Source of the DNA: Candidatus Iainarchaeum sp.
GTDB lineage: Archaea; Iainarchaeota; Iainarchaeia; Iainarchaeales; 0-14-0-20-34-12
NCBI GenBank assembly: GCA_030649345.1
Contig: JAUSKK010000038.1
Location: forward strand, 54,315-86,314
Direction: 5' to 3'
DNA length: 32,000 bases
The notes below the pieces were generated by a model that searched no databases, was not told where the DNA came from, and saw only the letters and a program-made list of their open reading frames with translations. Position numbers and translations under genes: made by a program. How positions within the stretch are numbered: position 1 is the first letter of the stretch; each line of letters opens with the position of its first letter. Below, piece after piece: positions 7,906-27,842 of this stretch.

Positions 7906-7954
7906 TTCTTTAAAAAACCTTAAATACTAGTTTTGGTCTTGTTTGTTGGATCTT

Positions 7955-8691: not shown

Positions 8692-9207
8692 GTGAATTTG
8701 CGGATAGTGTTAGCACTTTTTGTAGCTTTTATTGTTGCTGCCGGAATTTATCTTTATTCACCTAATTTTACTGGTTTGGTTGGATTAAGTGCTGTGAATT
8801 CAAGTGTTTCAATTCCAGAAGATCAGCCTTTAACAAATGCGCAAGTTCAAACTGTTGTGCAGCAATATCTTGCTGAAAATCCAATGCGTGCAAGTTATTT
8901 AAATTCTAAAGCACAAAGTAAATTGAATTCTGTTTTGCAAGAAAATCCTGGAATGACTAAAGAAGCTGTAACTGAATTAATGAATACTTTTACTCGTTCA
9001 CCGGAAGAAGAACAGCAAATGCTGCAAGAAATTGAACGCAATATGGCTGGAGTTGAAACTGTTGCAACCGGCGGGTATGAAGAAAATTTTATTTTTGGCG
9101 GAAGAACTTTTACTGAAACTGAATTAAAGAATATGACTCCAGAACAACAACAAGCATTTATTGAAGAATATGGTTTGCCAAATGGTTCGGAGGCGTATTC
9201 GAAATGA
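8692..9207 (+). CDS. N-terminally membrane-anchored protein, unknown function (first gene of surface operon)
   Basis: GTG start. MNLRIVLALFVAFIVAAGIYLY is a single TM/signal anchor. The stop overlaps the next start (ATGA at 9204-9207). GTGGGGG SD-like sequence at 8678-8684. Confidence 0.7.
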   Translation: MNLRIVLALFVAFIVAAGIYLYSPNFTGLVGLSAVNSSVSIPEDQPLTNAQVQTVVQQYLAENPMRASYLNSKAQSKLNSVLQENPGMTKEAVTELMNTFTRSPEEEQQMLQEIERNMAGVETVATGGYEENFIFGGRTFTETELKNMTPEQQQAFIEEYGLPNGSEAYSK

Positions 9208-10652
9208 AATTGCCGGCATTATTTTTTGCAGCAATTTTTTTCTTAACAATTTTTTCAATAAATGTATTTGCTATTTGGCCTTGGGATGAATGTGCTAATC
9301 CATCGGGCGGAACATTTACTGCGCCAGGTTCTGCAACTCAAAATGTTCACTGGTTTTATGATTCAGATGATTGGGCAAGTGCCTATATTCCTTCTTCAGG
9401 GAATTATGTGTTTTATTTGAGCGGGCCTAGCGGGCAAGACTTTGATTTGCAGCTATATTATTCCTGTGGTGGATCTCCGTTTCGGAGTTCCGCAGGCAGT
9501 ACGGCAACAGAATCTATTACTAACTACATATCTGGTGGTACAACTGTTCATATGCGTGTAATTGCATTTGGGAGCAGCAGCGGTAATTGGACTATGGGTG
9601 CCTATAAATCGTGTACTGCCAATACCAATTGGTGGTGTTCAAGCGGAGATGTGTATTGGTATGATTCTTGTGGAACCCGTGGATCTCTGAAACAAGATTG
9701 TACTGCCAGTCAAACTTGTTCTGTGGATGTTTGTGTGAATACTTGTACTTCTCATACTTCGTCTAGTTGTTCCAACGGTGATGTGTATTGGTATAATTCT
9801 TGCGGTACTCGAGAAGATTTAAGGCAAGATTGTTCGAGTTCTCAAATTTGTTCTGGCAATACTTGCCAAAATGTTGCCTGCTTTAATGATTCACAGTGTC
9901 CAAGTGATACTTTTGTTTCGAATACGCAAAGATGTTCTGCGTCCAGTGATGTAGAAGCTGTTTGGAGAAATTACTCGTGTGTCAATCCTGGAACAACTAG
10001 TTCGTCTTGTTCGTATGGTGAAGCCTATCAATTGTATGATAATTGCACATCTACTGAATATTGTAATTCCAGTACTAAAACTTGTCAATCATTTGCCTGT
10101 ACTTCTAATTCAAGCTGCGGAACCAATGCATATACTGGAAGCACGTTTTGTTCCAATAATGATGTTTACAAAAATAATGTAACCTATACTTGCAGTAATC
10201 CAAATACTTCGAGTTCTTCGTGTTCAAATTCAACCCAAGCAATTTTACAGCAAGACTGCGGTAATAATTCTACTACAACTTCCAATCGCAGATGTTCTGG
10301 TTCAGAAATTTTAGTAGACCAAACTGCAACTTTGCGCGGCTGTTCAACTGGAGCCTGTTATTCTTCAACTGGTTCAATTACTACTACAACAGAAACTGAT
10401 TGCAGTAATTTGAATTATTATGGAAGCACTGAATATTATTGTTCCAGTGATAATACGCAGAAAAGAAGCCGGCAATTGTATACTGGATTTTATTGCAATT
10501 CCAGTACAATTAGTTGTGCTCAAGGCAGTTCCTCGTATGTAAATGACCAATTGCTTGAAACCTGTGTATATGGTTGTTCAAGTGGATCATGCATTACTGC
10601 CAGACCCAATTTAGTGATTAGCAGTTCAGATATAACAATTGAGAAAACCTAA
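9204..10652 (+). CDS. Secreted Cys-rich protein with N-terminal PPC (pre-peptidase C-terminal)-like domain
   Basis: Signal peptide MKLPALFFAAIFFLTIFSINVFA. DSDDWASAYIPSSGNYVFYLSGPSGQDFDLQLYY ... VHMRVIAFGSSSGNWTMGAY fits the PPC pattern. This is followed by about 350 aa of Cys/Ser/Thr-rich modules. Confidence 0.8.
   Translation: MKLPALFFAAIFFLTIFSINVFAIWPWDECANPSGGTFTAPGSATQNVHWFYDSDDWASAYIPSSGNYVFYLSGPSGQDFDLQLYYSCGGSPFRSSAGSTATESITNYISGGTTVHMRVIAFGSSSGNWTMGAYKSCTANTNWWCSSGDVYWYDSCGTRGSLKQDCTASQTCSVDVCVNTCTSHTSSSCSNGDVYWYNSCGTREDLRQDCSSSQICSGNTCQNVACFNDSQCPSDTFVSNTQRCSASSDVEAVWRNYSCVNPGTTSSSCSYGEAYQLYDNCTSTEYCNSSTKTCQSFACTSNSSCGTNAYTGSTFCSNNDVYKNNVTYTCSNPNTSSSSCSNSTQAILQQDCGNNSTTTSNRRCSGSEILVDQTATLRGCSTGACYSSTGSITTTTETDCSNLNYYGSTEYYCSSDNTQKRSRQLYTGFYCNSSTISCAQGSSSYVNDQLLETCVYGCSSGSCITARPNLVISSSDITIEKT
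9636..9880 (+). repeat. Tandem 132-nt (44-aa) Cys-rich coding repeat, 2 copies
   Basis: CSSGDVYWYDSCGTRGSLKQDCTASQTCSVDVCVNTC versus CSNGDVYWYNSCGTREDLRQDCSSSQICSGNTCQNVAC. The GD codons sit at 9645 and 9777. Confidence 0.85.
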
Positions 10653-10662: not shown

Positions 10663-13600
10663 ATGTTGAATGAAAAAGCTAGAACACAATTGACTTTGGC
10701 ATTGCTTTTGTTAGTTGTAACTGGCGTTTCGTATTCTGTGTATGCTCCGCCGGGTGACAATGGAAATGCTCAGGATAATTTAAAAGATACTGATTTAATT
10801 TTTTCAACTGAAGAATTAAGTTCTTTGGAATTAAAACAGCAAGCTTTGCCTTATTTGAATTCTTTACTGAACACTGCAATTGAAGACGATCGCGCAAAAT
10901 TACTGGAAGCCAGAGATGCTGTTGAAGCTAGTTTGAATTCAAATTACTGGAAACGTTCCGGTGTTTTAGTTGTAGACAATCAAGTTTTTGAATTAAGTCA
11001 AACTGCAGCCAATCGAATTAAGACTTTATATAATCGTGAAAGTTCTGATTTGAATTCTGAACAATTATTGCTGGCAATATCGCGCATAGTTCAAGCAGAT
11101 CAGCAAGCAGCTGAATATACTTTGTTTTCTTTGCAGGAAATTTTTCCTCAATTAACAGATGAAAATTTGATTGCAACTATTCAGCCCATGCTTTCCAGTG
11201 CAGAAAATGCCTACGATCAAGCATTGCATCAGTTAAGTATTGGAAATTCGCCGAATGCAATTGTACACTTTCAAGAATCTTGGGATAATAGTTATCGTGC
11301 TGTTTTGTTGACTGATGAATTTACTATTCCGGAAGTAATCATTACAGAACCTTTGGCTGGCTGGTATACTCGTTTGGCCAGTATTTTGGTTTCAGGTACT
11401 CTTTGGGATGTTCAATTGGAAACCATTCCAAGTGTTGTGGTTGCAGTGAATGATTTGAATTATGTTTTCCCGCAATCCAATGGATTGTTTTCTGGAATTA
11501 TTTCTTTAACTGAAGGAAGCAATGCAATTGTAGTTTACGGAATTGACCAATATCAAAATATTGGAACTGCAGAAACTCAGGTAACTTTGGATACTATAGC
11601 TCCAGAAATTTTTGTAGCCGGTGTAGAAAATAATTCATTTAATCCAGTTTCTGTTACTCCGGTAATTGAGTTTTCAGATTTGCATTTAAATGAAACCAGA
11701 ATTGAATTAAACAATCAAATATTTATTTCAGGAACTGAAGTCTTAGAAGAAAAAGAATATTCTTTGGTTGTTTATGCTAATGATTTGGCTGGAAATGAAC
11801 AAACTCAGACTGTAAACTTTGTAATTGATCGCACAGTTCCAGAAATTGCTTTAATCAATCCCTACAATGGTCAGTTTGTGCACAATACACTAAATGTTCA
11901 AGGTACTGTGAGCGATACTTATTTAGATTACTATATATGGAAGATTGACGGAGTTGAAGTTGCACGCAATCAATCAAATTATTCTTGGAATACTCAAAAT
12001 TTTGAAGACGGAGAGCATACAGTAACTTTATTTGCAATTGATAATGCAGGAAACTCCAGTGAAACAACTGCTGCTGTTACAGTCGATAATACTTTGCCTG
12101 TGATTGAAGTTTCCGGCGTTTCAGACAATGAATTTTATAACTCTAACATTACTCCAGTAATTTTAGTTACTGAATTGAATTTAGAAATTCAGTTGTTTAC
12201 TTTGAATGATTTAGAATTTGTTTCAGGCACAGAAGTCAGTGCAGAAAATGAATACGATTTGAATGTAACTGTAATTGATAAAGCAGGAAATCGTGCTGAC
12301 CAAATAGTTTCATTTACGATTGACAAGACTGCTCCATTTGCTCAAATTGTAAATCCTTTGGAAAATTCCTTTGTGCATGAAATTGTTTCAATTCAAACTT
12401 TTGCAAGTGATTTGTATTTGGATACTCAAACTTTATTTTTGGATGGAACAGAAGTTTCTTCGAACAATTCTTTTGAATGGAATACTTTAGATTATTCTGA
12501 CGGCGAACATAGTATTGATTGGGTTGTAATAGATCAAGCAGGGAATTCTACAACAAGCAGTGTTTTGGTTACTGTAGACAATACACTTCCTGTTGTTTTG
12601 GTTTCAGGAATTCAAGAAAATGTTTTTTATAATTCAGATCGTGTTCCCTTGGTTGAAGTTCAAGATGTAAATCCAGATCAATTGAATGTATTTTTGAATA
12701 CTCAGCCTTTTGAATTAAGTAATTCCATTTCTTCAGATAACGAATATTCTTTTACTGCAATTGCTGTGGATCGTGCTGGAAATATTGGGCAGACTACTGT
12801 AAACTTTGTTTTGGATAAAACTGTTCCAGTAGTGGAAATTGTTTCTCCTGTAGAAAATTCTTTTTTGCGCCAAACTGTTGGAATCGAAGGACTTACAGAA
12901 GACAAGTATTTGAGTACAGTTGAATTATTGGTGGATGGAACTCTAGTTTCAAATAATTCTTTTTTTGAATGGAATACTTTGAACTATTCAGAAGGCTTGC
13001 ATTCCATTGAATTAATTGCTTTAGATTTAGCTGGCAATCAATCTAGTCAAACAATTCAAGTGACTGTAGATAATGTTTTGCCGGAATTGTTGGTTCAAAA
13101 TTTAACTGAAAATGGTTTGTATTTGAATTCTGATTTTACTCCCAAATTTGAATTAACTGAAACTAACCCTAGTGTAACCAGTTCTTTGTTGAATGATTTA
13201 GAATACAATTTGGAAACTGTAAGTGTAGATGGAGATTATGTTTTGGAAATTACTCACACAGACTTAGCTGGAAACTCCAATTCTTTGACTCGTACATTTG
13301 TAATGGATCAAACTTATCCAGTAACTTCAATTGATTCTCCAACTTCTGGTTCGTTTGTTCGCGGTATTGTTTTAGTTCAAGCTCAAGCCAGTGACTTGCA
13401 TTTGAGCCTAACTCAACTATTGATTGACAATGTTTTGGTTTCTTCTGAAAATGAATTCGAATGGAATACTTTAAATTACGCTGAGGGTGCTCATAAAGTT
13501 GAATGGATTGCTTTAGATTTAGCTGGAAATCAAACCAACAGTGTTTCGTATATTGTAGTAGATAATACTGTTCCAGTGATTGCTATTGTTGGAGTAACTG

Positions 13601-16600
13601 AAGGAACTTTTTATAATTCGAATCAAACTCCATTGGTTGTAGTTCATGAAACCAATCCTAAATTAACTCAAGCATTTTTGAATAACGAGCTCTTTGAATT
13701 AGATTCAACTATTGTTGAAGAAGGCGAATATACTTTAGAAGTTCAAACAGAAGACTTAGCTGGAAATACTGCTGTTCAATCTGTTTCGTTTGTAATTGAC
13801 AAAACTGCGCCTGTAACTTCCATTGATTCTCCAAGTTCTGGTTCGTTTGTTTCAGGCAATGTTTCAATTACTGCCAGTGCCAGTGACTTGTATTCTTTAA
13901 CTCATACTTTGTCTATAGATGGCCAAGTTTTGACTGAAAATAATTTTATGACTTGGAATACTTTGAATTATTCTGATGGCTTTCATGCAATTGAATGGCA
14001 TGTGCAAGATTTAGCAGGAAATGAAACCAATTTGACCTATGCTGTTACTGTTGACAACACAGTTCCAGTAATTGAATTTTTGAATTTAGAAGAAGGAACT
14101 TATTACAATCAGTTTTTGGTTCCAGAAGTTAAAATTACTGAAACTAATTTAGATTCAGTGCAGTATTTCTTAAACAATCAATCTTATATTCCTGGAACTG
14201 TAATTCAAGAAAATAAAGAATATGTTTTAGAAGTTCAAGCTTTGGATTTAGCCGGCAATCAATCGATTGAAAGTGTTTCATTTATTGTAGATACTTTAGC
14301 TCCAGTTGTGGAATTAAGTGTTCCGAGTGCCAGTAGTTTTGTTCGCGGGGTAGTGGAAATTTCGGGTTCAGTTTCTGATTTGTATTTGGATTCAACCAAT
14401 TTATTAATTGACAATTCTTGGGTTACTTCTGATTTACCATTTAACTGGAATACTTTAGATTATTCAGATGGAAATCATGTAGTTACTTTTACTGGAACTG
14501 ATTTGGCTGGAAACTCAACTACAGTTTCTGAAATCTTTACTGTAGATAATACTGTTCCAGTGTTTGTTTATGTTTTGCCGAATCAACCGTATACTCGCTG
14601 GGATGTATTGGTTGATTTTGTTTTAACTGAAATCAATAAAGGTGTTACTGAAGCTTTTTTGAATAATGAATCTTTTGATTGGCGTTCAGTAATTTCAGCT
14701 GAAGGAGATTACAATTTAGTTTTACGTCATACAGATAAAGCTGGAAATATTGCAGAAGTTTTGCGTACATTTACAATTGATAAAACCAAGCCTTGGGCTG
14801 AAATTTTAAGTCCAGAAAATAATTCGTTTGTTAAAGGAATTGTTCGCGTTTCTGCAGATGCGAATGACTTGCATGGTATTGTGTACCGTTTGGATGTAGA
14901 TCAACGTGTTTTAACTACTGGCAAATCCATTGACTGGAATACTTTTGTTGAAGGCGATGGCTTGCATGTTTTGAAATGGTTTGTAATTGATGTCGCAGCC
15001 AATGATATTTTAGTTGAACATACTGTTACTGTAGACAATACTTTGCCTGAAATTCGTTTCACCAATATTCAAAACGGAATACACTACAATTCTTCAATTA
15101 TTCCTGAAATTGAAATTGTGGAATTAAATTTGCAGAGCGTACATTATTTTTTGAACAATCAACCGTATGTTTTAGGTACTCCAATTTCTCAAGATAATGA
15201 CTATGTTTTGGAAATTCAGGTTACAGATAATGCTGGAAATTATGTTACGCGATTTATTAATTTTGTGATTGACACTACTGCGCCTGAAACAGTGTTAACT
15301 GTTCCAAACACAAATGATTTTGTAAAAGGCATGGTTTCAGTTACTGGTGAAACTTCAGATTTGTATTTAGACACCACTACTTTGTATATTGACAGTTTGC
15401 CAGTTGCGTATAGTTTTCCGTTTGAATGGAATACTGTAAATTATTCAGACGGAACACATACTGTAAGTTATACGGCTGTAGATTTGGCTGGCAATTCAAC
15501 TACTGTAAGTACAACAGTTAATGTGGACAATACTTTGCCGGCTGTAACCTATGTTACTCCAATTGTAAATTCGTATGTTCGCCAAACAGTTGAAATTAAT
15601 GCAACAATTGTTGAAACAAATTTGGAATTATTGGAATTATTAATTGACACTGAATTGATTAGTAATTCTTTGCCGTTTGAATTAAATACTTTAAATTATT
15701 CAGATGGAGAACATCAATTGTCTGTAACTTTAACAGACCAAGCTGGCAATTATTATAGAACGGATTGGACTGTATTTGTAGACAATACTGTTCCTGAATC
15801 GACTGTTTCTGAATTAATCGAGAATCCTACTTTGGTTGAACCTTTTTATTCTTTAACTGGAACTATTTTAGACTCAAGTAGTATTGAATATGTTCTAGTA
15901 AATGATCAAATGGTTTCTGTATTGGATGGAGATTTTTCATTTGATTTTAATGTAATCGAAGGTCGAAATACAATTACTGTAACTGCAGTTGATTTAGCTG
16001 GCAATCAAGTTGTTTTCTTGAAAGAAAGATTGGTAGACAAAGATTTGTTGCCTGATTTTTATGAATTATCTGTCTTGCAGTCTGATCCGTTGAATTCAGA
16101 TTCTGATTTTGGAACAACTGAAGCTGATGAATCAAATAACGAAATTTTGGATGATGCTGAAGATTTAGACCAAGATGGTTTGCCTACATTTGCAGAATAT
16201 TTTTATGGCTCTAATCCATTTTCAGATAATTCGGACGCAGATTCTTTGGATGATTTCTTTGAGTTAACTATGTCAGGCACTGATCCAGGAATTGCTGACT
16301 CAGATGAAGATGGCGTCTTAGATTCTGATGAAGACTTTGATGGAGATAGTTTAACGAATGCACAAGAAGAACAACTGCATGCCAATCCATACTTATTGGA
16401 TACTGATTCAGATGGCTTAGATGATTCTGTTGAATCTAGTTTAGGCACAAATCCAATTGAAGTGGATTCAGATCATGATGGTTTATTGGATGAAAGTGAA
16501 ATTTATTTGGAAAGCAATCCTTTGGTGTCAGATTCAGATAATGATGGTGTCTTAGATTCGTTGGAATATTATTCACAGACTTTTTCAGACTTGAATGGAA

Positions 16601-19341
16601 TTTTGCAAGTTACTATTGAAGGTCAAGGAGACTTGCGATACACTACTCAAGTTGTAGAAACACCTGAACCACATGCAGCATTGTTGGAATTACCGGATAT
16701 TGTTACAGGCTACTATGATATCTCTACGGATTCAAATTTTTTATCTGCTGTAGTGCGTTTGCATTATGCTGAAAGTGACTTGAATGGTTTGTTGGAATCT
16801 GAAATTCGATTATTTTACTACGATGAAGACTTGAATATTCTTGTAGAAGAATCCGTGCAAGGAGTGAATGAATCTGAAAATTATGTTTGGGCTCAAACTA
16901 CCCACTTTAGTTATCGTGCTGCTGGTTCCAGTAAAAATTGGAAAAGTCCAACCAGTTATCCTTGGAATCGCGATCCAATTGTTTATTCTTCTGGAGAAAC
17001 TTTGCGTTTGAAAGCCCGCGTTTATAATATTGGAATTGCTCCAGCTTCAAATGTTCCTGTGAGTTTTTATTCTGGAGATCCAAGTTCTGGTGGTGTTTTA
17101 CTTGGAACAGTTACTGTAAATAATATTCCTTCTGGTGGAAATGCTGAAGCAATTTTGACTTGGGTTGCCAGTTTGGATGTAGATTTCTTGTATGTTGTAG
17201 TGGATGCAGGCAATGTTATTGCAGAAGAATCTGAAACCGATAATAAAGCATTCCGTCAGTTTATCACAGAATTTAACGGCGATTCTGATGGTGATGGTTT
17301 AAGTGATTATGAAGAAATTAATGGAATGCGAACACAATTCAGTAATTTATTTATTAAGACAGATCCTTACGAAGAAGATACTGATGGCGATGGCTTAACT
17401 GATAATGTTGAAATGAATTTGGGTGGAGGAACTAATGCAAATCAACAGTATCTTACTAAAAGTAATCCATCTAAATTGGATTCGGATAATGATGGTTTAA
17501 CGGATTACGAAGAACTTGCTGGCCGGCAATTACGAATTACAAACAATCACTCAGATGCAGTTGCTTTATTGTCTGATTTGGAATTTGGAAATAGTTTAAG
17601 TGATAATGTGGACACTGGCACAGTTTATTCTGATGCATACATGGTTGACACCGATGCAGATGGGTTAACAGATTATCGCGAATTTGAATGGGGTTCAAAC
17701 CCCCGCTGGGTTGACTCAGATAGTGATGGACTAAAAGATGGTGTTGACGATGACCCTTCAATGTATGATGTTACTCCTCCAAGCGTGCAAATTGTTTCAG
17801 TTTATCAAGATGAATGGTTTGGATACAAAATTAAATATGTTGTGACTGCTACAGATTCATCTGGAATAATTGCTCATTGGATAATTCATGATGGCATACA
17901 AGTTGATTTTGCAACTTATGCTAATCGAAAAAATCCTGTGACTATTTCAGGTACCTTGGATGTCAGCTGGTTAAGTGAAAGTTTTACTGGCACTGTGGCT
18001 AACGTAAAAGTGGAGGATTATTCCGGTAACCAATTGATTAAAGACTTGTATTCTCAAGATGGTGTTGTCACTTCAGCCGCTGTTGCTGCTGTGAAAGAAA
18101 TTAATCGATTGTATTCTCAAGTGGATCCTTTTAGTGGGGGAATACAATCTGGAATTGCAATTAGTTTAATCCATCAAGGAGAAGATATTGTAGGCATAGT
18201 TAAAAATCCAGGCAGTATTTTGGATGGTATTCGTGGTTTAGGCACTGCAGTAGATGAGCAAGGTATTGGTGTGGTTTCTACTTTATATAATTCATTTAAG
18301 CAACGCATTGATGAATCGCATAATTCTTTGAATCCATTTAAATCCAGTGACTGGAGATATTCTTCTTATCAAGGTGGTTTTTACACTGGTTATGTGGGTG
18401 GCTTAATTATTACTTCCGTGGTAGGCGCTGGTGTTGTATCCAAAGGATTGAGTGTCATTAAAGCTGGAAGTTTAGTTTCTAAAATTTCAAAAATTAGCAT
18501 TGTAAAGAGCGCGCTGAGTATTGTAAAACAAACTCCACGAATGAAACTGTTATTGGGCGCAGCCGGAACTGTAGCTGCTACCTATTGGTTGAAAGAACAG
18601 TTCCCTGATATTGATGCATTGCAAACTTTGTCCGATTACCAAATAGGTTTTGCCACCATGGCATTAACTGCTGAAGCAGGTCCTGCCTTGGGTCGCATTG
18701 CAGGAGTTACAGCAGCTCAACAAAAACGCTTAGTTGTATTTCTTTCCCGAAATTCTAAATTTACTGTAGAAAATCGTGTGGCTTTCTTAAAGCCAGCATC
18801 AATTGACAACGGCGTAGCTAAAATATTCAGTGACTTGTCTGATGACTTACAGGATAATATTTTTATAGCATCTCACGGACAAGGCATTCCTTCATTGGAA
18901 CGTAGTGTAATTGTTTCTCGCACAAATCGATTGAAAAATGTCCCCGGAGTTGACGATGTTGTAAGGAATCTTAATAAACGTAATTGGCATGGTCATTATT
19001 TTGAATTAGATGCCGCGGATACTTTGCGAACGCGGGGTCATAATTTAATTGAATTATCTAAAAAATACCCTTTTGGTGACGGTGAACTGGATGTGTATTT
19101 CCAGCACTTAAATGGAAAGAAAATTGTTGCTGAAATAAAATCTATTCCGGCTGATAAATGGCTTACAAATAAAGGAAACTTAGATCCGCGTATTGATCGA
19201 CAATTGGATAGATATGCGCGACTTGTACAAACTGGCGATGCTCAAGAAGCATGGGTTATTTCAGAAAACACTATTTCTCCTGCTGCCAGAACGCTTATTG
19301 AAAACAAAGGAATTATTATAAAATATATTGGAGAGATTTAA
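10663..19341 (+). CDS. Giant (2,892 aa) multidomain cell-surface protein with C-terminal PD-(D/E)xK-like nuclease module
   Basis: Uninterrupted ORF with AGGTG 7 nt upstream. Domain order: N-terminal signal/anchor LTLALLLLVVTGVSYSVYA; helical region; Ig-like didomain array; two DxDxDG arrays; CARDB-like domain; hydrophobic helices (about 18370-18710); C-terminal E..D..ExK signature. Confidence 0.92.
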   Translation: MLNEKARTQLTLALLLLVVTGVSYSVYAPPGDNGNAQDNLKDTDLIFSTEELSSLELKQQALPYLNSLLNTAIEDDRAKLLEARDAVEASLNSNYWKRSGVLVVDNQVFELSQTAANRIKTLYNRESSDLNSEQLLLAISRIVQADQQAAEYTLFSLQEIFPQLTDENLIATIQPMLSSAENAYDQALHQLSIGNSPNAIVHFQESWDNSYRAVLLTDEFTIPEVIITEPLAGWYTRLASILVSGTLWDVQLETIPSVVVAVNDLNYVFPQSNGLFSGIISLTEGSNAIVVYGIDQYQNIGTAETQVTLDTIAPEIFVAGVENNSFNPVSVTPVIEFSDLHLNETRIELNNQIFISGTEVLEEKEYSLVVYANDLAGNEQTQTVNFVIDRTVPEIALINPYNGQFVHNTLNVQGTVSDTYLDYYIWKIDGVEVARNQSNYSWNTQNFEDGEHTVTLFAIDNAGNSSETTAAVTVDNTLPVIEVSGVSDNEFYNSNITPVILVTELNLEIQLFTLNDLEFVSGTEVSAENEYDLNVTVIDKAGNRADQIVSFTIDKTAPFAQIVNPLENSFVHEIVSIQTFASDLYLDTQTLFLDGTEVSSNNSFEWNTLDYSDGEHSIDWVVIDQAGNSTTSSVLVTVDNTLPVVLVSGIQENVFYNSDRVPLVEVQDVNPDQLNVFLNTQPFELSNSISSDNEYSFTAIAVDRAGNIGQTTVNFVLDKTVPVVEIVSPVENSFLRQTVGIEGLTEDKYLSTVELLVDGTLVSNNSFFEWNTLNYSEGLHSIELIALDLAGNQSSQTIQVTVDNVLPELLVQNLTENGLYLNSDFTPKFELTETNPSVTSSLLNDLEYNLETVSVDGDYVLEITHTDLAGNSNSLTRTFVMDQTYPVTSIDSPTSGSFVRGIVLVQAQASDLHLSLTQLLIDNVLVSSENEFEWNTLNYAEGAHKVEWIALDLAGNQTNSVSYIVVDNTVPVIAIVGVTEGTFYNSNQTPLVVVHETNPKLTQAFLNNELFELDSTIVEEGEYTLEVQTEDLAGNTAVQSVSFVIDKTAPVTSIDSPSSGSFVSGNVSITASASDLYSLTHTLSIDGQVLTENNFMTWNTLNYSDGFHAIEWHVQDLAGNETNLTYAVTVDNTVPVIEFLNLEEGTYYNQFLVPEVKITETNLDSVQYFLNNQSYIPGTVIQENKEYVLEVQALDLAGNQSIESVSFIVDTLAPVVELSVPSASSFVRGVVEISGSVSDLYLDSTNLLIDNSWVTSDLPFNWNTLDYSDGNHVVTFTGTDLAGNSTTVSEIFTVDNTVPVFVYVLPNQPYTRWDVLVDFVLTEINKGVTEAFLNNESFDWRSVISAEGDYNLVLRHTDKAGNIAEVLRTFTIDKTKPWAEILSPENNSFVKGIVRVSADANDLHGIVYRLDVDQRVLTTGKSIDWNTFVEGDGLHVLKWFVIDVAANDILVEHTVTVDNTLPEIRFTNIQNGIHYNSSIIPEIEIVELNLQSVHYFLNNQPYVLGTPISQDNDYVLEIQVTDNAGNYVTRFINFVIDTTAPETVLTVPNTNDFVKGMVSVTGETSDLYLDTTTLYIDSLPVAYSFPFEWNTVNYSDGTHTVSYTAVDLAGNSTTVSTTVNVDNTLPAVTYVTPIVNSYVRQTVEINATIVETNLELLELLIDTELISNSLPFELNTLNYSDGEHQLSVTLTDQAGNYYRTDWTVFVDNTVPESTVSELIENPTLVEPFYSLTGTILDSSSIEYVLVNDQMVSVLDGDFSFDFNVIEGRNTITVTAVDLAGNQVVFLKERLVDKDLLPDFYELSVLQSDPLNSDSDFGTTEADESNNEILDDAEDLDQDGLPTFAEYFYGSNPFSDNSDADSLDDFFELTMSGTDPGIADSDEDGVLDSDEDFDGDSLTNAQEEQLHANPYLLDTDSDGLDDSVESSLGTNPIEVDSDHDGLLDESEIYLESNPLVSDSDNDGVLDSLEYYSQTFSDLNGILQVTIEGQGDLRYTTQVVETPEPHAALLELPDIVTGYYDISTDSNFLSAVVRLHYAESDLNGLLESEIRLFYYDEDLNILVEESVQGVNESENYVWAQTTHFSYRAAGSSKNWKSPTSYPWNRDPIVYSSGETLRLKARVYNIGIAPASNVPVSFYSGDPSSGGVLLGTVTVNNIPSGGNAEAILTWVASLDVDFLYVVVDAGNVIAEESETDNKAFRQFITEFNGDSDGDGLSDYEEINGMRTQFSNLFIKTDPYEEDTDGDGLTDNVEMNLGGGTNANQQYLTKSNPSKLDSDNDGLTDYEELAGRQLRITNNHSDAVALLSDLEFGNSLSDNVDTGTVYSDAYMVDTDADGLTDYREFEWGSNPRWVDSDSDGLKDGVDDDPSMYDVTPPSVQIVSVYQDEWFGYKIKYVVTATDSSGIIAHWIIHDGIQVDFATYANRKNPVTISGTLDVSWLSESFTGTVANVKVEDYSGNQLIKDLYSQDGVVTSAAVAAVKEINRLYSQVDPFSGGIQSGIAISLIHQGEDIVGIVKNPGSILDGIRGLGTAVDEQGIGVVSTLYNSFKQRIDESHNSLNPFKSSDWRYSSYQGGFYTGYVGGLIITSVVGAGVVSKGLSVIKAGSLVSKISKISIVKSALSIVKQTPRMKLLLGAAGTVAATYWLKEQFPDIDALQTLSDYQIGFATMALTAEAGPALGRIAGVTAAQQKRLVVFLSRNSKFTVENRVAFLKPASIDNGVAKIFSDLSDDLQDNIFIASHGQGIPSLERSVIVSRTNRLKNVPGVDDVVRNLNKRNWHGHYFELDAADTLRTRGHNLIELSKKYPFGDGELDVYFQHLNGKKIVAEIKSIPADKWLTNKGNLDPRIDRQLDRYARLVQTGDAQEAWVISENTISPAARTLIENKGIIIKYIGEI
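11587..15795 (+). repeat. Coding tandem array: about 8.5 copies of a 492-nt (164-aa) Ig-like didomain unit
   Basis: The V-D-N-(T/V)-(L/V)-P boundary motif starts at 12082, 12574, 13066, 13558, 14050, 14542, 15031, 15523 and 15778. The spacing is 492 nt six times, 489 once, then a half unit. Each unit holds one ..EY.L.V...D.AGN...FxIDKTAP domain and one ..F.WNTL(N/D)YS(D/E)G.H...D.AGN..VDNT.P domain. Confidence 0.9.
16081..16560 (+). repeat. Thrombospondin type 3-like Ca-binding repeat array 1 (DxDxDG)
   Basis: DSDEDGVLDSDEDFDGDSL, DTDSDGLDD, DSDHDGLLD and DSDNDGVLD, each preceded by (S/T)NP. Confidence 0.8.
16993..17250 (+). other. CARDB-like beta-sandwich domain within giant protein
   Basis: GETLRLKARVYNIGIAPASNVPVSFYSGD ... 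IPSGGNAEAILTW ... LYVVVDAGNVIAEESETDNKA. The ending vvD..N.i.E..E.DN is typical of CARDB. Confidence 0.7.
17278..17757 (+). repeat. Thrombospondin type 3-like Ca-binding repeat array 2
   Basis: DSDGDGLSDYEE, DTDGDGLTDNVE, DSDNDGLTDYEE, DTDADGLTDYRE and DSDSDGLKDGVDDDP. Confidence 0.8.
18970..19338 (+). other. PD-(D/E)xK (restriction-endonuclease/Hjc-like) fold signature at C-terminus of giant protein
   Basis: HGHYFELDAADTLRTRG (E2781, helix), then GDGELDVYFQ (D2810, strand), then KKIVAEIKS (E2824-x-K2826, strand), then RQLDRYARL helix, then AWVIS strand. The order and spacing match the alpha-beta-beta-beta-alpha-beta core. Confidence 0.6.
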
Positions 19342-19343: not shown

Positions 19344-19976
19344 GTGTCTTCTGGTTTTGTTGCACAGTTTTATGTCTCTGGAAATTTATCTTCTGAAATT
19401 ATTTCCACTAAATTATTAAAAGTAGCACAAGTCCTACAAGAAAGTGGATTTACGCTTGAAAAAGAAAAATCTTTAGAATATACTTTTTACTGTAAAGAAA
19501 ACAGTTATTTTATGGAATTGTTTTTGTTTCAAGCTAATTCAGTGGATTCATTTAAGGTAATTGAATTATCAGCTACTTTAAGTTCACATCTTTCCCTGCA
19601 ATTTTGGAATAAACTTATTGATGTAGTTATCAAAGTATATAGTGTTATTCAACCAGAATTTGGATTGGGTGACGCGGAAGAGTTTTTTAATGATTTTAGA
19701 CATCCTAAAACTGAATTAGGCTGGCTTACTTTCTTTAACTCAAAACAAGTTCATTCACTGGGTGAACAAAAGTTTTCTCAAATTCCGGTGTGGAAATCAG
19801 GAGAATACGAATTGAAATTCGGAGAATACTTTGACAAAGTGTCTGCCGGCAAAATGCAGTTGTTACCTGTCTGGAAATGCGAAAAATTATCCGATGGAAG
19901 TTATCTTTTGGTATTGACTGAACAATTTGAAGGCTATCCTTCTCTAAAAGAGCTGAAACAACATTTAGGGTTGTGA
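19344..19976 (+). CDS. Hypothetical cytoplasmic protein, candidate cognate immunity/partner of the C-terminal nuclease module
   Basis: The GTG start lies 2 nt after the giant-gene stop (19339-19341). No signal peptide or TM segment. 210 aa with an alpha+beta-like composition and a GWLTFFNSKQV motif. Confidence 0.65.
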   Translation: MSSGFVAQFYVSGNLSSEIISTKLLKVAQVLQESGFTLEKEKSLEYTFYCKENSYFMELFLFQANSVDSFKVIELSATLSSHLSLQFWNKLIDVVIKVYSVIQPEFGLGDAEEFFNDFRHPKTELGWLTFFNSKQVHSLGEQKFSQIPVWKSGEYELKFGEYFDKVSAGKMQLLPVWKCEKLSDGSYLLVLTEQFEGYPSLKELKQHLGL

Positions 19977-19978
19977 AC

Positions 19979-20239
19979 TTATTTGTAGCTTTTGTACCAG
20001 CGTTCGTATTCTTTGTGCGTTTCAAAGCAATGCAGTATGTAAATGATTTCTTTTTCGATATAGTAAATAATTCTTGCTTGTTTTGTGACATTTTCTGTGA
20101 AATAAGGCAAGCCATGATTCAAGTGTTTGCTAACTGGATTGTCGGCAATTTTTTCAATATGTTTTCCAAATTGTTTGTTTAAAGGATTGGGTATTTTTTC
20201 AAGTTCTTTTTCAGCAGTTTCAAGAATTTGTATTTCCAT
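19979..20239 (-). CDS. RelE/ParE-superfamily toxin
   Basis: MEIQILETAEKELEKIP ... ARIIYYIEKEIIYILHCFETHKEYERW. The start was trimmed to the ATG at 20239, 1 nt after the upstream antitoxin stop (20241-20243). Confidence 0.75.
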   Translation of the reverse strand: MEIQILETAEKELEKIPNPLNKQFGKHIEKIADNPVSKHLNHGLPYFTENVTKQARIIYYIEKEIIYILHCFETHKEYERWYKSYK

Positions 20240-20240
20240 T

Positions 20241-20477
20241 TTACCACTTGAACTTTTTCTTGATTTCATTAAAAGACTTTGTTTTGATATTGCCTGCTTT
20301 CACTTCATCCATTTCTATTCGGATGCCTTTGGCAACCAGTTCTTTTTCTTCTTCATCCAGTATGCGTTCGTAAGCCAATAATGCCTGCCGAATTACTTCG
20401 GTTTGACTTCCAGCATATCCTTTTTCAATTGCTTTTTTTACAATAGTTTCATAAGGAATTCCCAAATTTACGTTCAT
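20241..20477 (-). CDS. ParD-like RHH antitoxin
   Basis: MNVNLGIPYETIVKKAIEKGYAGSQTEVIRQALLAYE resembles the ParD-type N-terminus (..G.Y.S.SEVIR.AL). GGAGG sits 7 nt upstream on the minus strand (20485-20489). Confidence 0.75.
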   Translation of the reverse strand: MNVNLGIPYETIVKKAIEKGYAGSQTEVIRQALLAYERILDEEEKELVAKGIRIEMDEVKAGNIKTKSFNEIKKKFKW

Positions 20478-20630: not shown

Positions 20631-20658
20631 TACTTTTGCCAATAGTTTATTGATTGTT

Positions 20659-20871
20659 ATGAACTTTAAGGTAATTTTAGAGAAAGGTGAAGATGGTTTT
20701 TTTGTAGTGACTGTTCCTGCTTTGCCTGGTTGTATTTCTCAAGGTGAAACTGAAAAAGAAGCTTTGGATAATATTAAGGAAGCCATTGAATTGCATGTTT
20801 CTTCTTTGGCTGAAGATGGAATTCCGATTTCTCAGAAACAAGTTGTGAAGGAAGTTGCTGTAAGGTTATAG
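20659..20871 (+). CDS. hicB: HicB-family antitoxin (UPF0150)
   Basis: MNFKVILEKGEDGFFVVTVPALPGCISQGETEKEALDNIKEAIELHV is the canonical HicB N-domain. Start set at ATG 20659 rather than TTG 20650. Confidence 0.85.
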   Translation: MNFKVILEKGEDGFFVVTVPALPGCISQGETEKEALDNIKEAIELHVSSLAEDGIPISQKQVVKEVAVRL

Positions 20872-20872
20872 A

Positions 20873-21134
20873 ATGTCTAAGCTTCCGATTATTTCCGCAA
20901 ACGAAACGCTTGTTTCGTTGCGCATTAAAACGTGTTCGTTTTAATTGCGGAAAAGATTTATTGAAAATTTTATTAAAAAAAGGTTATTATATTCGAAACC
21001 AGAAAGGAAGTCATGTTCATTTGCGTCATTCTTTTTTGTTGCCTGTGACTGTTCCCAATCATAAAGTAATTGCACTAGGTACACTTAAAGCTATAATGAA
21101 AACTACTGGTTTAACTGAAAAAGATTTTGAGTAA
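20873..21134 (+). pseudogene. hicA: HicA-family toxin gene interrupted by a 52-nt insertion after codon 8
   Basis: The ATG at 20873 encodes MSKLPIIS, then runs into a stop at 20942-20944. The HicA core GKDLLKILLKKGYYIRNQKGSHVHLRH...VTVPNH...GTLKAIMKTTGLTEKDFE resumes at 20949 in the +1 frame. Removing 20897-20948 restores the canonical MSKLPIISGKDLL... reading frame. Confidence 0.75.
20897..20948. repeat. 52-nt double-hairpin palindromic insertion (REP/MITE-like) inside hicA
   Basis: Hairpin 1: AACGAAAC-gctt-GTTTCGTT (20900-20919), extended by CGC/GCG. Hairpin 2: CGCATTAAAACG-tgtt-CGTTTTAAT(T)GCG (20921-20949). The insert sits at the centre of what would be the palindrome TTTCC|GGAAA. The outer 9-bp inverted repeat is TTTCCGCAA/TTGCGGAAA (20892-20900 / 20945-20953). 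Confidence 0.7.
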
Positions 21135-21584: not shown

Positions 21585-22358
21585 ATGTATTTTATGGCTA
21601 GTGACCGAACACAAACAGGTATTGAAGGCTTGGATAAAGCATTAAATGGAGGCATTCCTTCAGGAAATTTAGTCTTATTGTCGGGTGGAGCTGGAACTGG
21701 TAAGAGTACCTTATGCTTGCAGTACTGCATTAATGGTTGTGTAAAATTTAATGAGAAAGCTTTGTTTATTTCAACAGAGCAAACGCCCACTGAATTACTA
21801 AGACAGGCTGCTCAATACAATTGGCCTTTGACTGATTTGATTAACAAAGGCAAACTCAAGATAGAATACTTTGATGTTACCAAAGGCGACGAGTTCTTGA
21901 AACGAATCGATGAAAGCATTGATCACTTTAAACCCAACAGAATTGCTTTAGATTCTTTAACCACATTAGCCGATGCTTTATTAATTTCAGACATGTCAGA
22001 AGAAACTGCTTTTAGTATGGTTCAAATTGCCGAAAGCGTAAACCCTATTCCAAGAACTGAACAAATAATTACAAAAACACTATTATACAGATTAATTGGA
22101 GCACTCAAAAAATATCATGTTACAACTTTACTCACAAGCGAATTGCCGGAAGAAGGAAAAACACTAAGCGCAGATGGAGTAAGTGAGTTTATTACGGATG
22201 GAGTAATTTTATTAAGTTATTTGAGTGTTGGTGCAACTGAATTAAGAGTTCTTAAAATAAGAAAAATGAGATATTCTGTTCACACTAAAGAATATCTGAC
22301 TTATGATTTTTCATCCAAAGGGCTTGAATGCAAACTTGAAGAACAGTTAAGTATTTAG
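21585..22358 (+). CDS. KaiC-like / RecA-superfamily ATPase (single domain)
   Basis: TGIEGLDKALNGGIPSGNLVLLSGGAGTGKSTLCLQY (Walker A), RIALDSLT (Walker B-like) and TTLLTSE. Alternative start at 21594 (MASDRTQ). Confidence 0.85.
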   Translation: MYFMASDRTQTGIEGLDKALNGGIPSGNLVLLSGGAGTGKSTLCLQYCINGCVKFNEKALFISTEQTPTELLRQAAQYNWPLTDLINKGKLKIEYFDVTKGDEFLKRIDESIDHFKPNRIALDSLTTLADALLISDMSEETAFSMVQIAESVNPIPRTEQIITKTLLYRLIGALKKYHVTTLLTSELPEEGKTLSADGVSEFITDGVILLSYLSVGATELRVLKIRKMRYSVHTKEYLTYDFSSKGLECKLEEQLSI

Positions 22359-22371: not shown

Positions 22372-22941
22372 ATGTGGGATACTGTTGCCAAACTTTTAAT
22401 GCACAAACAAATTTCCTTTGAAAAAGGTAAAATAGAAATATTTGGTCGGCTTTCATCACTGTTGCCATCAGATTCGTTTGTGACTCTACAAATGGAACTT
22501 GAGACACGTGGACTTCAAAACTTAATATATTTTAAAGCAAAAGAATCAGGCGCAAAATGGTTTGTTGAAATGAATAAATATTATCATTTGAAAGGAATGG
22601 ATGTAATTAAATGGGGGTCTGAAATAGTTACATTTGCCGGTTGGGGTGAAGCAATAATTGTAAGACGAGATGATTCAAAAAAAGAAATTGTATTTAATTT
22701 AAAAAATTCAATAACTGCAAAATTACACCCAGCCTCAGTAGTGCCAGTTGATCATTTATTTCGAGGCTTACTTTGTGGTGCAATGGCCACAATTTATGAT
22801 ATTGAATTATCTAAAATTGACGCAGTTGAAACTAAGTGTATTGCGATGGGTAGTCCAATCTGTGAATTTATTGTCAAACAAACTAGCGAATTTGATGTTA
22901 ATAATGATTTAGTTAAAGCTCAGCTAACTCCGGTAATGTAA
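22372..22941 (+). CDS. V4R domain protein
   Basis: VDHLFRGLLCGAMATIY ... VETKCIAMGSPICEFIVK. Located 13 nt downstream of the KaiC-like gene. Confidence 0.75.
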   Translation: MWDTVAKLLMHKQISFEKGKIEIFGRLSSLLPSDSFVTLQMELETRGLQNLIYFKAKESGAKWFVEMNKYYHLKGMDVIKWGSEIVTFAGWGEAIIVRRDDSKKEIVFNLKNSITAKLHPASVVPVDHLFRGLLCGAMATIYDIELSKIDAVETKCIAMGSPICEFIVKQTSEFDVNNDLVKAQLTPVM

Positions 22942-24965: not shown

Positions 24966-27842
24966 ATGGATAATAAGATGGTTTCTGGAAAAGTAATTGT
25001 TTTGTTTTTGCTGGTTTTGCTGAGTTGTACTTTAACTGCAAGCGCGCAATCTTTGAGTTCAGAAGTTGAAAACATTCAAATTCAAGCCCAAAAATATGAA
25101 TCTCAAGAAATTAGTTTCCTGCAATTAAAAATGCTGCTCAATCAAGCCAGAGAAAATATTGTCAGCAAAATTGAAAACCAAAGAATTCAAATCTCTGGCC
25201 AAGAAGAAAACAGAAACGAATTAGGCTGGAGTACAGAAAGCATCCAACAACTATTAGGAGAACCTACTGGATACGATGAATGGCTATGGTTTGAAAACTT
25301 AAGACAATCCAAACGAGTGAAAGAAAAAATTGCCAAATGGGAAAAAACAATCTGGGATGGGCAAAAAATTAAAATAACCCTAAATGCTTGGCCGCAAGCA
25401 CTCCAACACGAACAAGAAATTATTCAATTTTACTGGATTGATTTAGATTTAAAATTTAAAAAACCAGAAGATCGGCTGGAAAAAAACAAAATCATCCAAG
25501 AACTAGACACAGCCATACAAAATTACAAAAATCAAACCACGGATATTAAAGAATTTGCAAAAACAACAGTAGAACTAGAAAAACAACTGCAAACATTTTC
25601 TGAAAACAATCAAAAAAATTGCGCGGCAGCCATGGAAAACTTTTTTGAATTCACACCCCAAGAACGCCTTAGAACCCAATGGCAAGGAGTACTATTCGAA
25701 GGACAAAATTTTGAACTAGAACTCAACTTAGATGAAGGCAAAGAACCAGACCACAATTACCAATACTGGAATGCCAGAGTAGACTTCCGGCCAACAACAG
25801 ACAATTTTAAATTACCAGAATTTTTACCTCAAGAAAACAACTTACAAGAAGAAATTGCAAACCAACAACCCGAAGAATTAATTCAAGAACTTAAAAAAAG
25901 ACTAAATCAAATCAAAGAATTTGCAAAAACACTGGATATTATTCCCAATGCTTCAGCTGGGCAACAAATTCAAGAAAACTTGTACTGGATTCAAGAAGCA
26001 AGCAATGTATTAAACCAAAAAGCCAACAATCAAGAATATGGTTACACTCTAGAAAAACTTGCACAAGACTGGGAACAAATATTTCAAGAATTTACAACCA
26101 ATTATGAAAAAAATACAATTACTGAAAAAAGATTCAATGTCTTAGTCTTAGATGAACAAAAAGAACAAACATCCGCCTATTGTCAAGCCAAAGAAACAGA
26201 CTGCGGAGAAAACAATGTCTGCCAAAATGCTGTTTGTGTGAGTGCTTTAGGTGGAAATGAAATCTGTGACAACCAACAAGACGATGATTTAGATACTTTA
26301 AATAACTGCGAAGACCCAGACTGCTTTGAAACCTGCAGAAATCCGCCAGAAATAAATGAAAATAGTTTTCCGGAACCGCAAAATAGTCCGGAACAAGAAA
26401 ATTCTATTTCAGAACCTGAAAGTAATCCAGAAAATTCAAATCCAGGCTCTGAAAACAATGAATTAGAAAATTCTAATCCTGAATTAAATGAAAACAATTC
26501 TTTGCAAAATACAGGAAATGTTTTACTGCAAGCAAACGAAAATGAATCTAGGTGCGGTGAATCGGTTTGCAGAACAAATCAAGTATGCAATTCAGAAAAA
26601 GGCTGGTGTGATTGCAGGCAAGGATTCTTTGACTGTGACGGCGAATGGTTAAATGGCTGCGAAAGCCAAAGTTCCTGCAAACAATGTCAAACCAATCAAG
26701 ATTGTGCTCAAACCAGGTGCAGTGAAGACAATCGAAGACTTACTGAATTTGAATGCAAACAAGGAGATAGTTATACTGAAAATATAGCTTCAGTTGAATT
26801 GGCTGGAAGTTGTGAAATACTGAATTCTGGAGAAATTCGAGCCGGAGTATGGATTAGTGCTTGGGGTGAAGGATTTGAAAACTTTAATGAATTCAAACAA
26901 GAATACTATTCTCAAGATGATAAAAGTCATTGCTTGAAAGAATTTGAATCCTTTAAACAAGAACGCATTGAATTACAAAAATCTTTAAACAATGAATTGC
27001 TGGAATGGTTTTATGAAAATTCAGTTAAACAAAAAGTAAATGATTTTGAAAAACACACGCGTTCCATTCGTGCAATTTATGAAAGTTTTATTCGCGTCAA
27101 CGGAGACTTAGCCAGAAGCATGACTTGCTTGAATATGACTCAATTGCCTGCAGAAATTCAACCGATTTCCAAAGTAAAACTAGACGCAGGAAATGGGTAT
27201 GTTGAAATATGGGAAGAAAAAAAGACAACTGCTTTTTTTGCAGAAGGCCAGCAAACTCAAACAAGCGTGGAAGTAATTTCGCCGTATGCTACGTTTTGGT
27301 TTTTTCCAACAAGAGAAGAATTTAAAGAAGAATTCAAAAAACACTTTTTTGAAGAAGGTCCAGAATCTGAAGGGCCCAGTCCAGATGAATTGAAACAAAT
27401 CAGAAACGATTTACAGGTAATACAAAAAATTGAAAGAATTAGTGACTTGTTTGGAGGAGAAGCCAAATTAGTAATGGAAATACGAGATGGAAGTGAAGCA
27501 ATTGCCCGCGGAGTATTCTCCATTGATCCAGTGAATTTAGTTCGATTTGATAAAACGTTAGACAAACCTGAAGATACAGACGTAACTTTAGTGGTGGGTT
27601 TGGATTTTATGTATGGAATTATGGAAGGTATTTTTAAAGAACAATTCGAGAACGATGTCCAAAAACCATATTGGGAAGAACAATTTGAATTTGAAATTGA
27701 TGATGCTTTAATTGAAATTAAAATTTTCAGTAACTTAATTGGCGGTTTACTTTCTGGGCAAATTATAGTTGAACCCTTTTATCAATTGCCGAATACTCTT
27801 TTAGCATTGCAAGAATTAATGACTTTAATGCCCAAAGGATAA
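24966..27842 (+). CDS. Large secreted protein (958 aa) with Q/E/K-rich helical region, Cys-rich modules and acidic N/E/S/P low-complexity linker
   Basis: Signal peptide VIVLFLLVLLSCTLTASAQ. Cys clusters at about aa 405-460 and 525-590. NSPEQENSISEPESNPENSNPGSENNELENSNPELNENNS linker (about 26350-26500). Confidence 0.8.
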   Translation: MDNKMVSGKVIVLFLLVLLSCTLTASAQSLSSEVENIQIQAQKYESQEISFLQLKMLLNQARENIVSKIENQRIQISGQEENRNELGWSTESIQQLLGEPTGYDEWLWFENLRQSKRVKEKIAKWEKTIWDGQKIKITLNAWPQALQHEQEIIQFYWIDLDLKFKKPEDRLEKNKIIQELDTAIQNYKNQTTDIKEFAKTTVELEKQLQTFSENNQKNCAAAMENFFEFTPQERLRTQWQGVLFEGQNFELELNLDEGKEPDHNYQYWNARVDFRPTTDNFKLPEFLPQENNLQEEIANQQPEELIQELKKRLNQIKEFAKTLDIIPNASAGQQIQENLYWIQEASNVLNQKANNQEYGYTLEKLAQDWEQIFQEFTTNYEKNTITEKRFNVLVLDEQKEQTSAYCQAKETDCGENNVCQNAVCVSALGGNEICDNQQDDDLDTLNNCEDPDCFETCRNPPEINENSFPEPQNSPEQENSISEPESNPENSNPGSENNELENSNPELNENNSLQNTGNVLLQANENESRCGESVCRTNQVCNSEKGWCDCRQGFFDCDGEWLNGCESQSSCKQCQTNQDCAQTRCSEDNRRLTEFECKQGDSYTENIASVELAGSCEILNSGEIRAGVWISAWGEGFENFNEFKQEYYSQDDKSHCLKEFESFKQERIELQKSLNNELLEWFYENSVKQKVNDFEKHTRSIRAIYESFIRVNGDLARSMTCLNMTQLPAEIQPISKVKLDAGNGYVEIWEEKKTTAFFAEGQQTQTSVEVISPYATFWFFPTREEFKEEFKKHFFEEGPESEGPSPDELKQIRNDLQVIQKIERISDLFGGEAKLVMEIRDGSEAIARGVFSIDPVNLVRFDKTLDKPEDTDVTLVVGLDFMYGIMEGIFKEQFENDVQKPYWEEQFEFEIDDALIEIKIFSNLIGGLLSGQIIVEPFYQLPNTLLALQELMTLMPKG

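Follow-up and report, generated by a model that had tools for sequence, protein, structure and literature searches.

A native archaeal gene coupled to a giant surface-protein gene, and its possible role as inhibitor of a predicted nuclease tail

The 32,000-nucleotide (nt) window analysed here (positions 54,315 to 86,314 of the forward strand of contig JAUSKK010000038.1, assembly GCA_030649345.1, Candidatus Iainarchaeum sp.) carries a giant gene encoding 2892 amino acids (aa), which is directly followed on the same strand by a 210-aa open reading frame (ORF), referred to as ORF210. ORF210 is a real, native and lineage-specific protein-coding gene that is co-transcribed with the giant gene and whose translation is coupled to the last codons of that gene. 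As to its function, gene position alone tentatively suggests, with a likelihood that falls just short of even, that ORF210 is the cognate inhibitor of the nuclease predicted in the tail of the giant protein. The features involved are given below, in window positions.

10663 to 19341, plus strand: giant gene (2892 aa), with a signal-peptide-like N-terminus, immunoglobulin (Ig)-like modules, CARDB, TSP3, a membrane-helix-like segment and a nuclease-like tail
18979 to 19317, plus strand: Mrr_cat-like PD-(D/E)xK nuclease domain (aa 2773–2885 of the giant protein)
19003 to 19005, 19090 to 19092, 19132 to 19134 and 19138 to 19140, plus strand: putative catalytic residues E2781, D2810, E2824 and K2826, respectively (E, D, ExK motif set)
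19330 to 19335, plus strand: Shine-Dalgarno-like GGAGAG, 8 nt before the ORF210 GTG and within the last codons of the giant gene
19344 to 19976, plus strand: ORF210 (210 aa), with its GTG start at 19344 and its TGA stop at 19974–19976
19719 to 19736, plus strand: GWLTFF motif of ORF210 (residues 126–131)

The giant ORF ends with a TAA codon (19339–19341) that is separated by only two bases (tt) from the GTG of ORF210, in line with the original prediction that both genes lie 2 nt apart. This GTG is the first possible start of ORF210, as an in-frame TGA is located upstream (19299–19301) and no ATG, GTG or TTG intervenes. The GGAGAG in front of it is comparable to the GGAGG sites that precede four other genes of the window by 11–15 nt. 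When codon usage was scored as log-odds, with the remaining genes of the window as training set (the accepted ones scoring 0.13–0.52), ORF210 yielded 0.343 bits per codon in its own frame versus –0.17 to +0.04 in the other five frames. Moreover, dinucleotide-preserving shuffling of the whole 32-kb window produced an ORF of at least 210 aa in 1 out of 100 shuffles, with a mean longest ORF of 128 aa. Both the GC content and the codon-position GC of ORF210 agree with its surroundings, marking it as native rather than island-like. An antisense ORF (19735–20115) was rejected as a gene, with a codon score of –0.02 that is typical of non-coding sequence. At its other end, the TGA of ORF210 lies 2 nt from the stop codon of a convergent ORF (19979–19981, minus strand), which places ORF210 at the end of its transcription unit, as had also been proposed.

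The ORF210 product lacks a signal peptide, a membrane segment and a basic N-terminal region (its maximal 19-residue Kyte-Doolittle mean being 1.15), which agrees with the earlier reading of the protein, and this absence of export signals predicts it to be cytoplasmic. It is thereby the sole non-exported product of the operon, as the products of the two genes upstream are a membrane protein and a Cys-rich secreted protein, respectively. Because these upstream products are exported or membrane-bound, and because the next downstream gene is convergent, ORF210 is the only candidate partner of the giant protein in the operon. The protein is also acidic (isoelectric point (pI) of 5.3, and of 4.8 for its N-terminal half), and since it is acidic rather than basic it fits an inhibitor better than a DNA-binding subunit. 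The pairing of this acidic N-terminal half with a basic segment of the giant protein (aa 2600–2772, pI 9.9) was likewise counted in favour of an inhibitor role.

The putative target of ORF210 resides in the last ~115 residues of the giant protein, which match Pfam Mrr_cat with an E-value of 4.8e-4 and a score of 20.7 bits (cut-off 21) over profile positions 2–104 of 115, next to a second and weak match of the tail to NA-iREase1. The presumed catalytic residues are found in the contexts HYFELD (E2781), GELDVYF (D2810) and VAEIKS (E2824-x-K2826), and sit on a strand hairpin predicted by AlphaFold2. In the same model, the nuclease part reached a predicted local distance difference test (pLDDT) score of 75–92, and its core follows the order strand-strand-helix-strand-helix-strand. 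The weak Foldseek matches of the tail include (at E 0.13–0.37) AF1548, Cdn1, Can2, VC1899, EcoO109I and AspBHI, all of which are PD-(D/E)xK nucleases. The tail resembles the Mrr-family type IV restriction endonucleases (Pfam Mrr_cat, PF04471) in its catalytic-core motifs and its predicted secondary-structure order over nearly the whole profile, but these enzymes are free-standing while the tail is part of a giant surface protein, and its score stays 0.3 bits under the gathering cut-off. A DNA-binding domain of the Mrr_N type was not detected, no Tox-REase model was matched by the tail (only the generic Mrr_cat was), and no ATPase family was matched by the tail or by ORF210. It is likely, though not proven, that the tail carries the predicted nuclease domain of the restriction-endonuclease fold.

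Upstream of the tail, the giant protein matches the Pfam families Big_13, Big_7, Glucodextran_B and CARDB as well as bacterial TSP3 repeats. It includes about eight Ig-like modules with a strict 164-residue period, as counted from the motif VDN[TV][LV]P at aa 474, 638, 802 and onwards to 1621 (window positions 12000–15600). Tandem Repeats Finder (TRF) detected no DNA-level tandem repeat in the giant gene, indicating that these modules have diverged well. PT-TG (PF14449) and other pre-toxin or protease domains were not detected in aa 2540–2686 and 2370–2570 at E≤10. A resemblance to the TG motif might be seen in GIAISLIHQGEDIVG, but the PT-TG profile gave no match.

Two further features, located just ahead of the tail, bear on the side of the membrane where the nuclease would reside.

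18379 to 18459, plus strand: hydrophobic Gly-rich segment FYTGYVGGLIITSVVGAGVVSKGLSVI (aa 2573–2599, maximal Kyte-Doolittle value 1.88)
18454 to 18552, plus strand: juxtamembrane stretch (aa 2598–2630) with 7 K/R and 0 D/E in 33 residues, i.e., a positive-inside signature

The hydrophobic segment is a candidate stop-transfer anchor or membrane-interacting pre-toxin segment. Around it, the composition of the giant protein shifts abruptly from secreted-like to cytoplasm-like. The ectodomain (3.7% K+R, 26% S+T+N and 1.2 N-x-S/T sequons per 100 aa) resembles the other secreted proteins of the window, while the tail (aa 2600–2892, window positions 18460–19338; 13.3% K+R, 17% S+T+N and 0 sequons) resembles its cytoplasmic enzymes. 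Judged from these sequence properties, the signature would be that of a type-I membrane protein with a cytoplasmic tail, and the predicted nuclease may never leave its producer. Between a tail that is tethered in the cytoplasm and one that is delivered, the topology evidence leans slightly towards the tethered form.

Profile searches with ORF210 returned no families in Pfam (full ORF at E≤1 and each half at E≤10), nor in NCBIfam, PADLOC and PHROGs, and no PDB sequence was matched at E≤10. Pfam is here taken by us to include the Imm (Imm1-74), SUKH/SMI1_KNR4, SuFu, Imm-PA2201 and barstar models. As far as these profiles can tell, ORF210 falls outside all known immunity families, so that the profile search proposed earlier as support for an immunity role came out negative. 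The GWLTFF motif, to which that proposal had drawn attention as reminiscent of immunity families, is indeed present, but its resemblance did not translate into a detectable family match. C-terminal of it, PVWK motifs occur twice, at residue 148 and again at residue 175. Motifs typical of regulation or nucleotide binding could not be recognised in ORF210, and the window contains no paralogue of it.

In a word-indexed search of 5.8 billion clusters, the sole match of ORF210 was ORF210 itself. A full HMMER search of 1.84 billion representative proteins yielded two further matches, i.e., P0002 (1393 aa), of which each of nine repeats aligns only to ORF210 residues ~148–191, and P0003, a short-repeat protein that aligns to residues 142–188. 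Both were rejected as homologues, since they represent local PVWKCEKLSDGS hairpin matches with E-values inflated by 5–9 repeated stretches, leaving no true homologue of ORF210 among these 1.84 billion proteins. Scans of genome, viral and plasmid contig collections with ORF210 were empty, and exact look-ups only recovered Logan contigs of one run (SRR13727527) that are identical to the window; the accession of this run turned up in no paper. Single-sequence AlphaFold2 modelling of ORF210 resulted in a mean pLDDT of 47.9, with residues ~14–120 at 59–83. The modelled N-terminal half is ordered as strand-helix-four strands-helix, and the C-terminal 90 residues have no resolved model. Foldseek of this model retrieved generic alpha+beta folds (KA1, Bet v 1-like) with TM-scores <0.5, which were not used for assignment.

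The giant tail and the 330 residues that precede it were similarly without homologues in the protein search, although this search also missed the giant protein itself, and the database may thus contain too few proteins that are very long or truncated. The tail had no match in the metagenome contig collection, and no orphan tip copies or tail paralogues were found in the window. The only other assembly of the region, Logan contig L001 (SRR13727527), starts at position 19276, i.e., 66 nt before the giant stop and within the unique tail instead of the repeats. A break in the assembly graph at this point could reflect strain variation at the tip.

Taken as an inhibitor, ORF210 would be made alongside the giant protein, would bind the nuclease tail in the cytoplasm of the producer and, once bound, would block DNA cleavage there. 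In one variant of this scheme the tail would be released and delivered to neighbours, as in a classical polymorphic-toxin system, while in the other it would stay tethered inside the producer behind the C-terminal anchor, with ORF210 acting as a safety catch. An intact nuclease would be present in the cytoplasm at least while it is being made, and perhaps permanently, and plausibly needs a safeguard there. We infer that the nuclease is active, that ORF210 binds it and that this binding is inhibitory. The positional logic of toxin-immunity pairs applies because ORF210 is coupled directly behind a nuclease-like C-terminus. In polymorphic toxin systems, an immunity gene placed directly after the toxin domain is the rule and tips of the restriction-endonuclease fold are common (PMC3482391), and DNase and RNase tips dominate among the predicted archaeal systems as far as these are summarised in PMC8416519 (citing Makarova 2019). 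The immunity role put forward in the original prediction thus retains a real, coupled, acidic and putatively cytoplasmic gene product encoded behind a nuclease-like domain, but did not find its counterpart in any immunity family. Its strict version, with a delivered toxin and immunity against sister cells, accounts for somewhat less than half of the likelihood that we give to inhibition as such.

In terms of function, the closest known systems are the Tox-REase polymorphic toxins (Tox-REase-1 to -10, with Imm-SUKH, Imm49, Imm52, Imm54, Imm-PA2201 and other immunity proteins; Zhang et al. 2012, PMC3482391). Like these, the locus is predicted to encode a large secreted protein that has a signal peptide, contains long arrays of repeats and ends in a ~115-residue PD-(D/E)xK-like domain (E, D, ExK) at its extreme C-terminus, directly followed in the same orientation by a small gene for a cytoplasmic product. 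Unlike these, ORF210 matches none of the immunity families and the tip matches the generic Mrr_cat only. Moreover, no pre-toxin domain (PT-TG, HINT, etc.) was detected and a membrane-helix-like segment precedes the tip instead, there are no orphan cassettes, and the locus is archaeal. Equally close in function are the predicted archaeal polymorphic toxins (arCOG07560-type multidomain secreted proteins; Makarova et al. 2019, as summarised in PMC8416519), which in that summary share with our locus the Ig/CARDB-rich secreted effector, the nuclease-type C-terminus and the adjacent small gene. According to the same summary, such archaeal systems were predicted but not experimentally characterised as of 2021 (PMC8416519).

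Several observations weigh against ORF210 being an inhibitor. It matched neither an immunity family nor any other family in Pfam, NCBIfam, PADLOC and PHROGs, and in the absence of a homologue its co-occurrence with nuclease tips cannot be shown. Its AlphaFold2 model is poor (with the abovementioned mean pLDDT of 47.9) and has only generic alpha+beta matches. On the side of the presumed target, the Mrr_cat score lies 0.3 bits below the Pfam cut-off, while none of the structural matches reaches significance. Enzymes of the Mrr family, furthermore, typically depend on DNA modification and need no protein inhibitor. The window scan revealed no orphan tip or immunity cassettes nearby. Finally, the tail is preceded by a membrane-helix-like segment, which is unusual among Sec-exported polymorphic toxins, by a lysine-rich stretch and by the shift towards a cytoplasm-like composition. 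Because of this segment, the K-rich positive-inside stretch and the cytoplasm-like composition, the tail may not be a delivered toxin. As it stands, ORF210 is an orphan from a single sample with a function proposed from gene order, at a locus whose anatomy is coherent and slightly unusual.

The same gene order would have a different meaning if ORF210 were an unrelated, lineage-specific gene that borders a small toxin-antitoxin (TA) island (ParDE, HicAB) and shares a transcript with the giant gene but has no functional link to its protein. ORF210 is indeed an ORFan that borders two TA modules in a window with many family-less genes, and none of its sequence features points to nuclease binding. 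Nevertheless, the gap of only 2 nt and the location of the ribosome-binding site within the giant gene point to obligatory co-expression of both genes, and such tight coupling is rarer for unrelated genes than for partners. Its codon usage and GC content, moreover, are native and not those of an island. We therefore regard a mere passenger gene as unlikely, although it is the alternative that survives best.

A somewhat less likely alternative follows from the topology of the giant protein, which could be a type-I anchored adhesin with a permanently cytoplasmic tail, in which case ORF210 might be a non-inhibitory accessory subunit instead of an immunity protein, serving as regulator or adaptor of the tail or connecting the nuclease to contacts made at the cell surface. 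The hydrophobic segment at aa 2573–2599, the basic stretch behind it, the secreted-like ectodomain and the sequon-free tail all suit this arrangement, even though the segment is Gly-rich and borderline. There is also a precedent among DPANN archaea. The SPEARE giant membrane-anchored proteins of Nanohaloarchaeota and other DPANN (PMC6642349; re-analysed in PMC10266531) combine a Sec signal and an Ig-like ectodomain with a transmembrane segment close to the C-terminus, behind which an enzymatic domain lies in the cytoplasm, and are functionally linked to a cytoplasmic partner encoded directly downstream (PMC6642349). The archaeal character of the window (with its asparaginyl-tRNA synthetase (AsnRS), V4R, KaiC-like and UbiA/GGR genes and TATA-like boxes) is in keeping with such a precedent.

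In architecture, the SPEARE proteins are in fact the closest known relatives in kind, sharing with the giant protein a signal-like N-terminus, an Ig-like ectodomain, a transmembrane-like segment near the C-terminus, a cytoplasm-like tail and a putatively linked gene for a cytoplasmic product right behind it. However, re-analysis of the SPEARE domain that was initially taken for a restriction endonuclease identified it as a VirB4/TraG ATPase (PMC10266531), whereas the tail of the giant protein is no such ATPase. Instead, its ~295 aa contain the Mrr-like PD-(D/E)xK domain and lack an ATPase match. In addition, the gene downstream of SPEARE encodes a second (VirB4-like) ATPase while ORF210 is an orphan, and the giant protein counts 2892 aa versus 6000–9400 for SPEARE. 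Lacking an ATPase, the locus does not belong to the SPEARE group, and the likeness is architectural only. An accessory role for ORF210 is further disfavoured by its lack of a recognisable regulatory or nucleotide-binding motif, and an intact nuclease in the cytoplasm would still need a safeguard, which leads back to inhibition. A set of co-directed genes that is likewise headed by a large surface protein with Ig domains is known from Thermococcales as the VARTIG module (PMC8416519). These genes are variable, and their organisation has been likened to that of polymorphic toxin systems (PMC8416519). VARTIG nevertheless features a hypervariable C-terminal Ig domain without a nuclease and downstream membrane or Ig genes, as opposed to the nuclease-like tip and the soluble downstream gene found here.

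Anchoring and inhibition might also be combined. In this rather improbable scenario, the giant protein would be an adhesin that is anchored in the membrane and senses contact, in an archaeon living (epi)symbiotically or attached to surfaces. ORF210 would keep its cytoplasmic Mrr-like nuclease inactive until the latter is released, either because the Ig ectodomain is engaged or because DNA of foreign or host origin is imported where contact is made. Such an outside-in nuclease-inhibitor switch might serve defence, self-destruction or DNA scavenging. A comparable role was once proposed and later withdrawn for SPEARE, whereas the fold predicted here is that of a genuine endonuclease.

The weakest alternative, i.e., that ORF210 is a non-coding frame that arose by chance in the giant gene's 3′ untranslated region, might draw on its lack of homologues (and hence of conservation evidence) and its low-confidence AlphaFold2 model, but is highly improbable given its 210 sense codons in DNA of ~34% GC (a length attained anywhere in 32 kb by the single shuffle mentioned above), a codon score that is gene-typical in its own frame and in none of the other five, a ribosome-binding site at the right distance and an N-terminal half that folds at pLDDT 59–83 even without an alignment.

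Should ORF210 inhibit the nuclease tail, it would represent a new and structurally uncharacterised family of nuclease inhibitors, and tail and ORF210 would together offer a compact two-piece test case for archaeal conflict systems. Should the tail be cytoplasmic, giant archaeal adhesins could carry a genuine endonuclease on the inside, an idea that was proposed for SPEARE and later retracted.

The genes on either side of the giant gene and ORF210 are as follows.

8692 to 9207, plus strand: first gene of the apparent operon (171 aa; membrane helix at the N-terminus), sharing 4 nt with the next gene
9204 to 10652, plus strand: second gene of the operon, encoding a 482-aa secreted protein (8.3% Cys, S/T/N-rich) and ending 10 nt before the giant gene
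19979 to 20269, minus strand: convergent ParE/RelE-like ORF of 96 codons (ParE_toxin, E 8.9e-4, 20.2 bits with a cut-off of 23; Gp49, 19.3 bits)
20241 to 20477, minus strand: ParD-like antitoxin ORF (TIGR02606, E 1.2e-5, below the cut-off)
20650 to 21134: pair formed by HicB-like (E 1.2e-13) and HicA (E 1.6e-15) genes, immediately following the ParDE-like one

The 482-aa secreted protein has no Pfam family, consists for 39% of S+T+N, carries 2.6 sequons per 100 aa and contains repeated CS.GDVYWY.SCGTR…QDC units. The adjacent ectodomain of the giant protein, by contrast, is entirely free of cysteine. The convergent neighbour of ORF210 had been labelled a RelE/ParE-like toxin beforehand, and is only weakly ParE-like, with a ParE_toxin score under the family cut-off. 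As listed, the ParE-like and ParD-like ORFs overlap by 29 nt, but an alternative ATG of the former at 20239 (minus strand), 1 nt past the ParD-like stop, would yield an 87-aa product and the coupling that is typical of TA pairs. No terminator-like sites were found between the convergent genes, and no Rfam families were matched.

In the remainder of the window, the AsnRS gene product found its best match in 1x54, with 420 bits versus 357 bits for 5zg8. We take these entries to be the archaeal AsnRS of Pyrococcus and a bacterial (Thermus) AsnRS, respectively. The window also carries V4R, single-domain KaiC-like and UbiA/GGR-like genes. About a dozen of the 19 start codons examined are preceded by boxes of the TTTAAA/TTTATATA type, situated 20–40 nt upstream and without a Shine-Dalgarno sequence, while operon-internal and some other genes carry GGAGG. 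This box pattern is archaeal and leaderless-like, keeping in mind that such motifs are frequent by chance at 34% GC. Two V4R-like paralogues (7943–8524 and 22372–22941; 31% identity over 86 aa, E ~1e-10) flank the giant operon and the TA block, and the second of these adjoins the KaiC-like ATPase gene (21585–22358). The latter had no match in the genome and metagenome contig collections. Among the species-representative genomes scanned, no relative came to light.

Two lipobox-containing (…FGC and …AGC), S/T-rich secreted proteins (98–796 and 2370–3146) are weak paralogues (E 0.015–0.04) without a family, and a family-less 958-aa secreted protein rich in Q, E and N (24966–27842) lies in a region of strong A-over-T skew (0.32 at 25001–26000). 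A PIN-domain gene (6110–6619) overlaps a family-less gene (6612–7256), which is in turn paralogous to the likewise family-less gene at 7297–7905 (27% identity over 122 aa, E ~8e-6), both ending in Lys/Pro/Arg-rich tails (…KPKPK). Small toxin or nuclease modules are abundant in the window, and comprise the ParDE-like, HicBA and PIN modules as well as an NYN gene (30222–30632).

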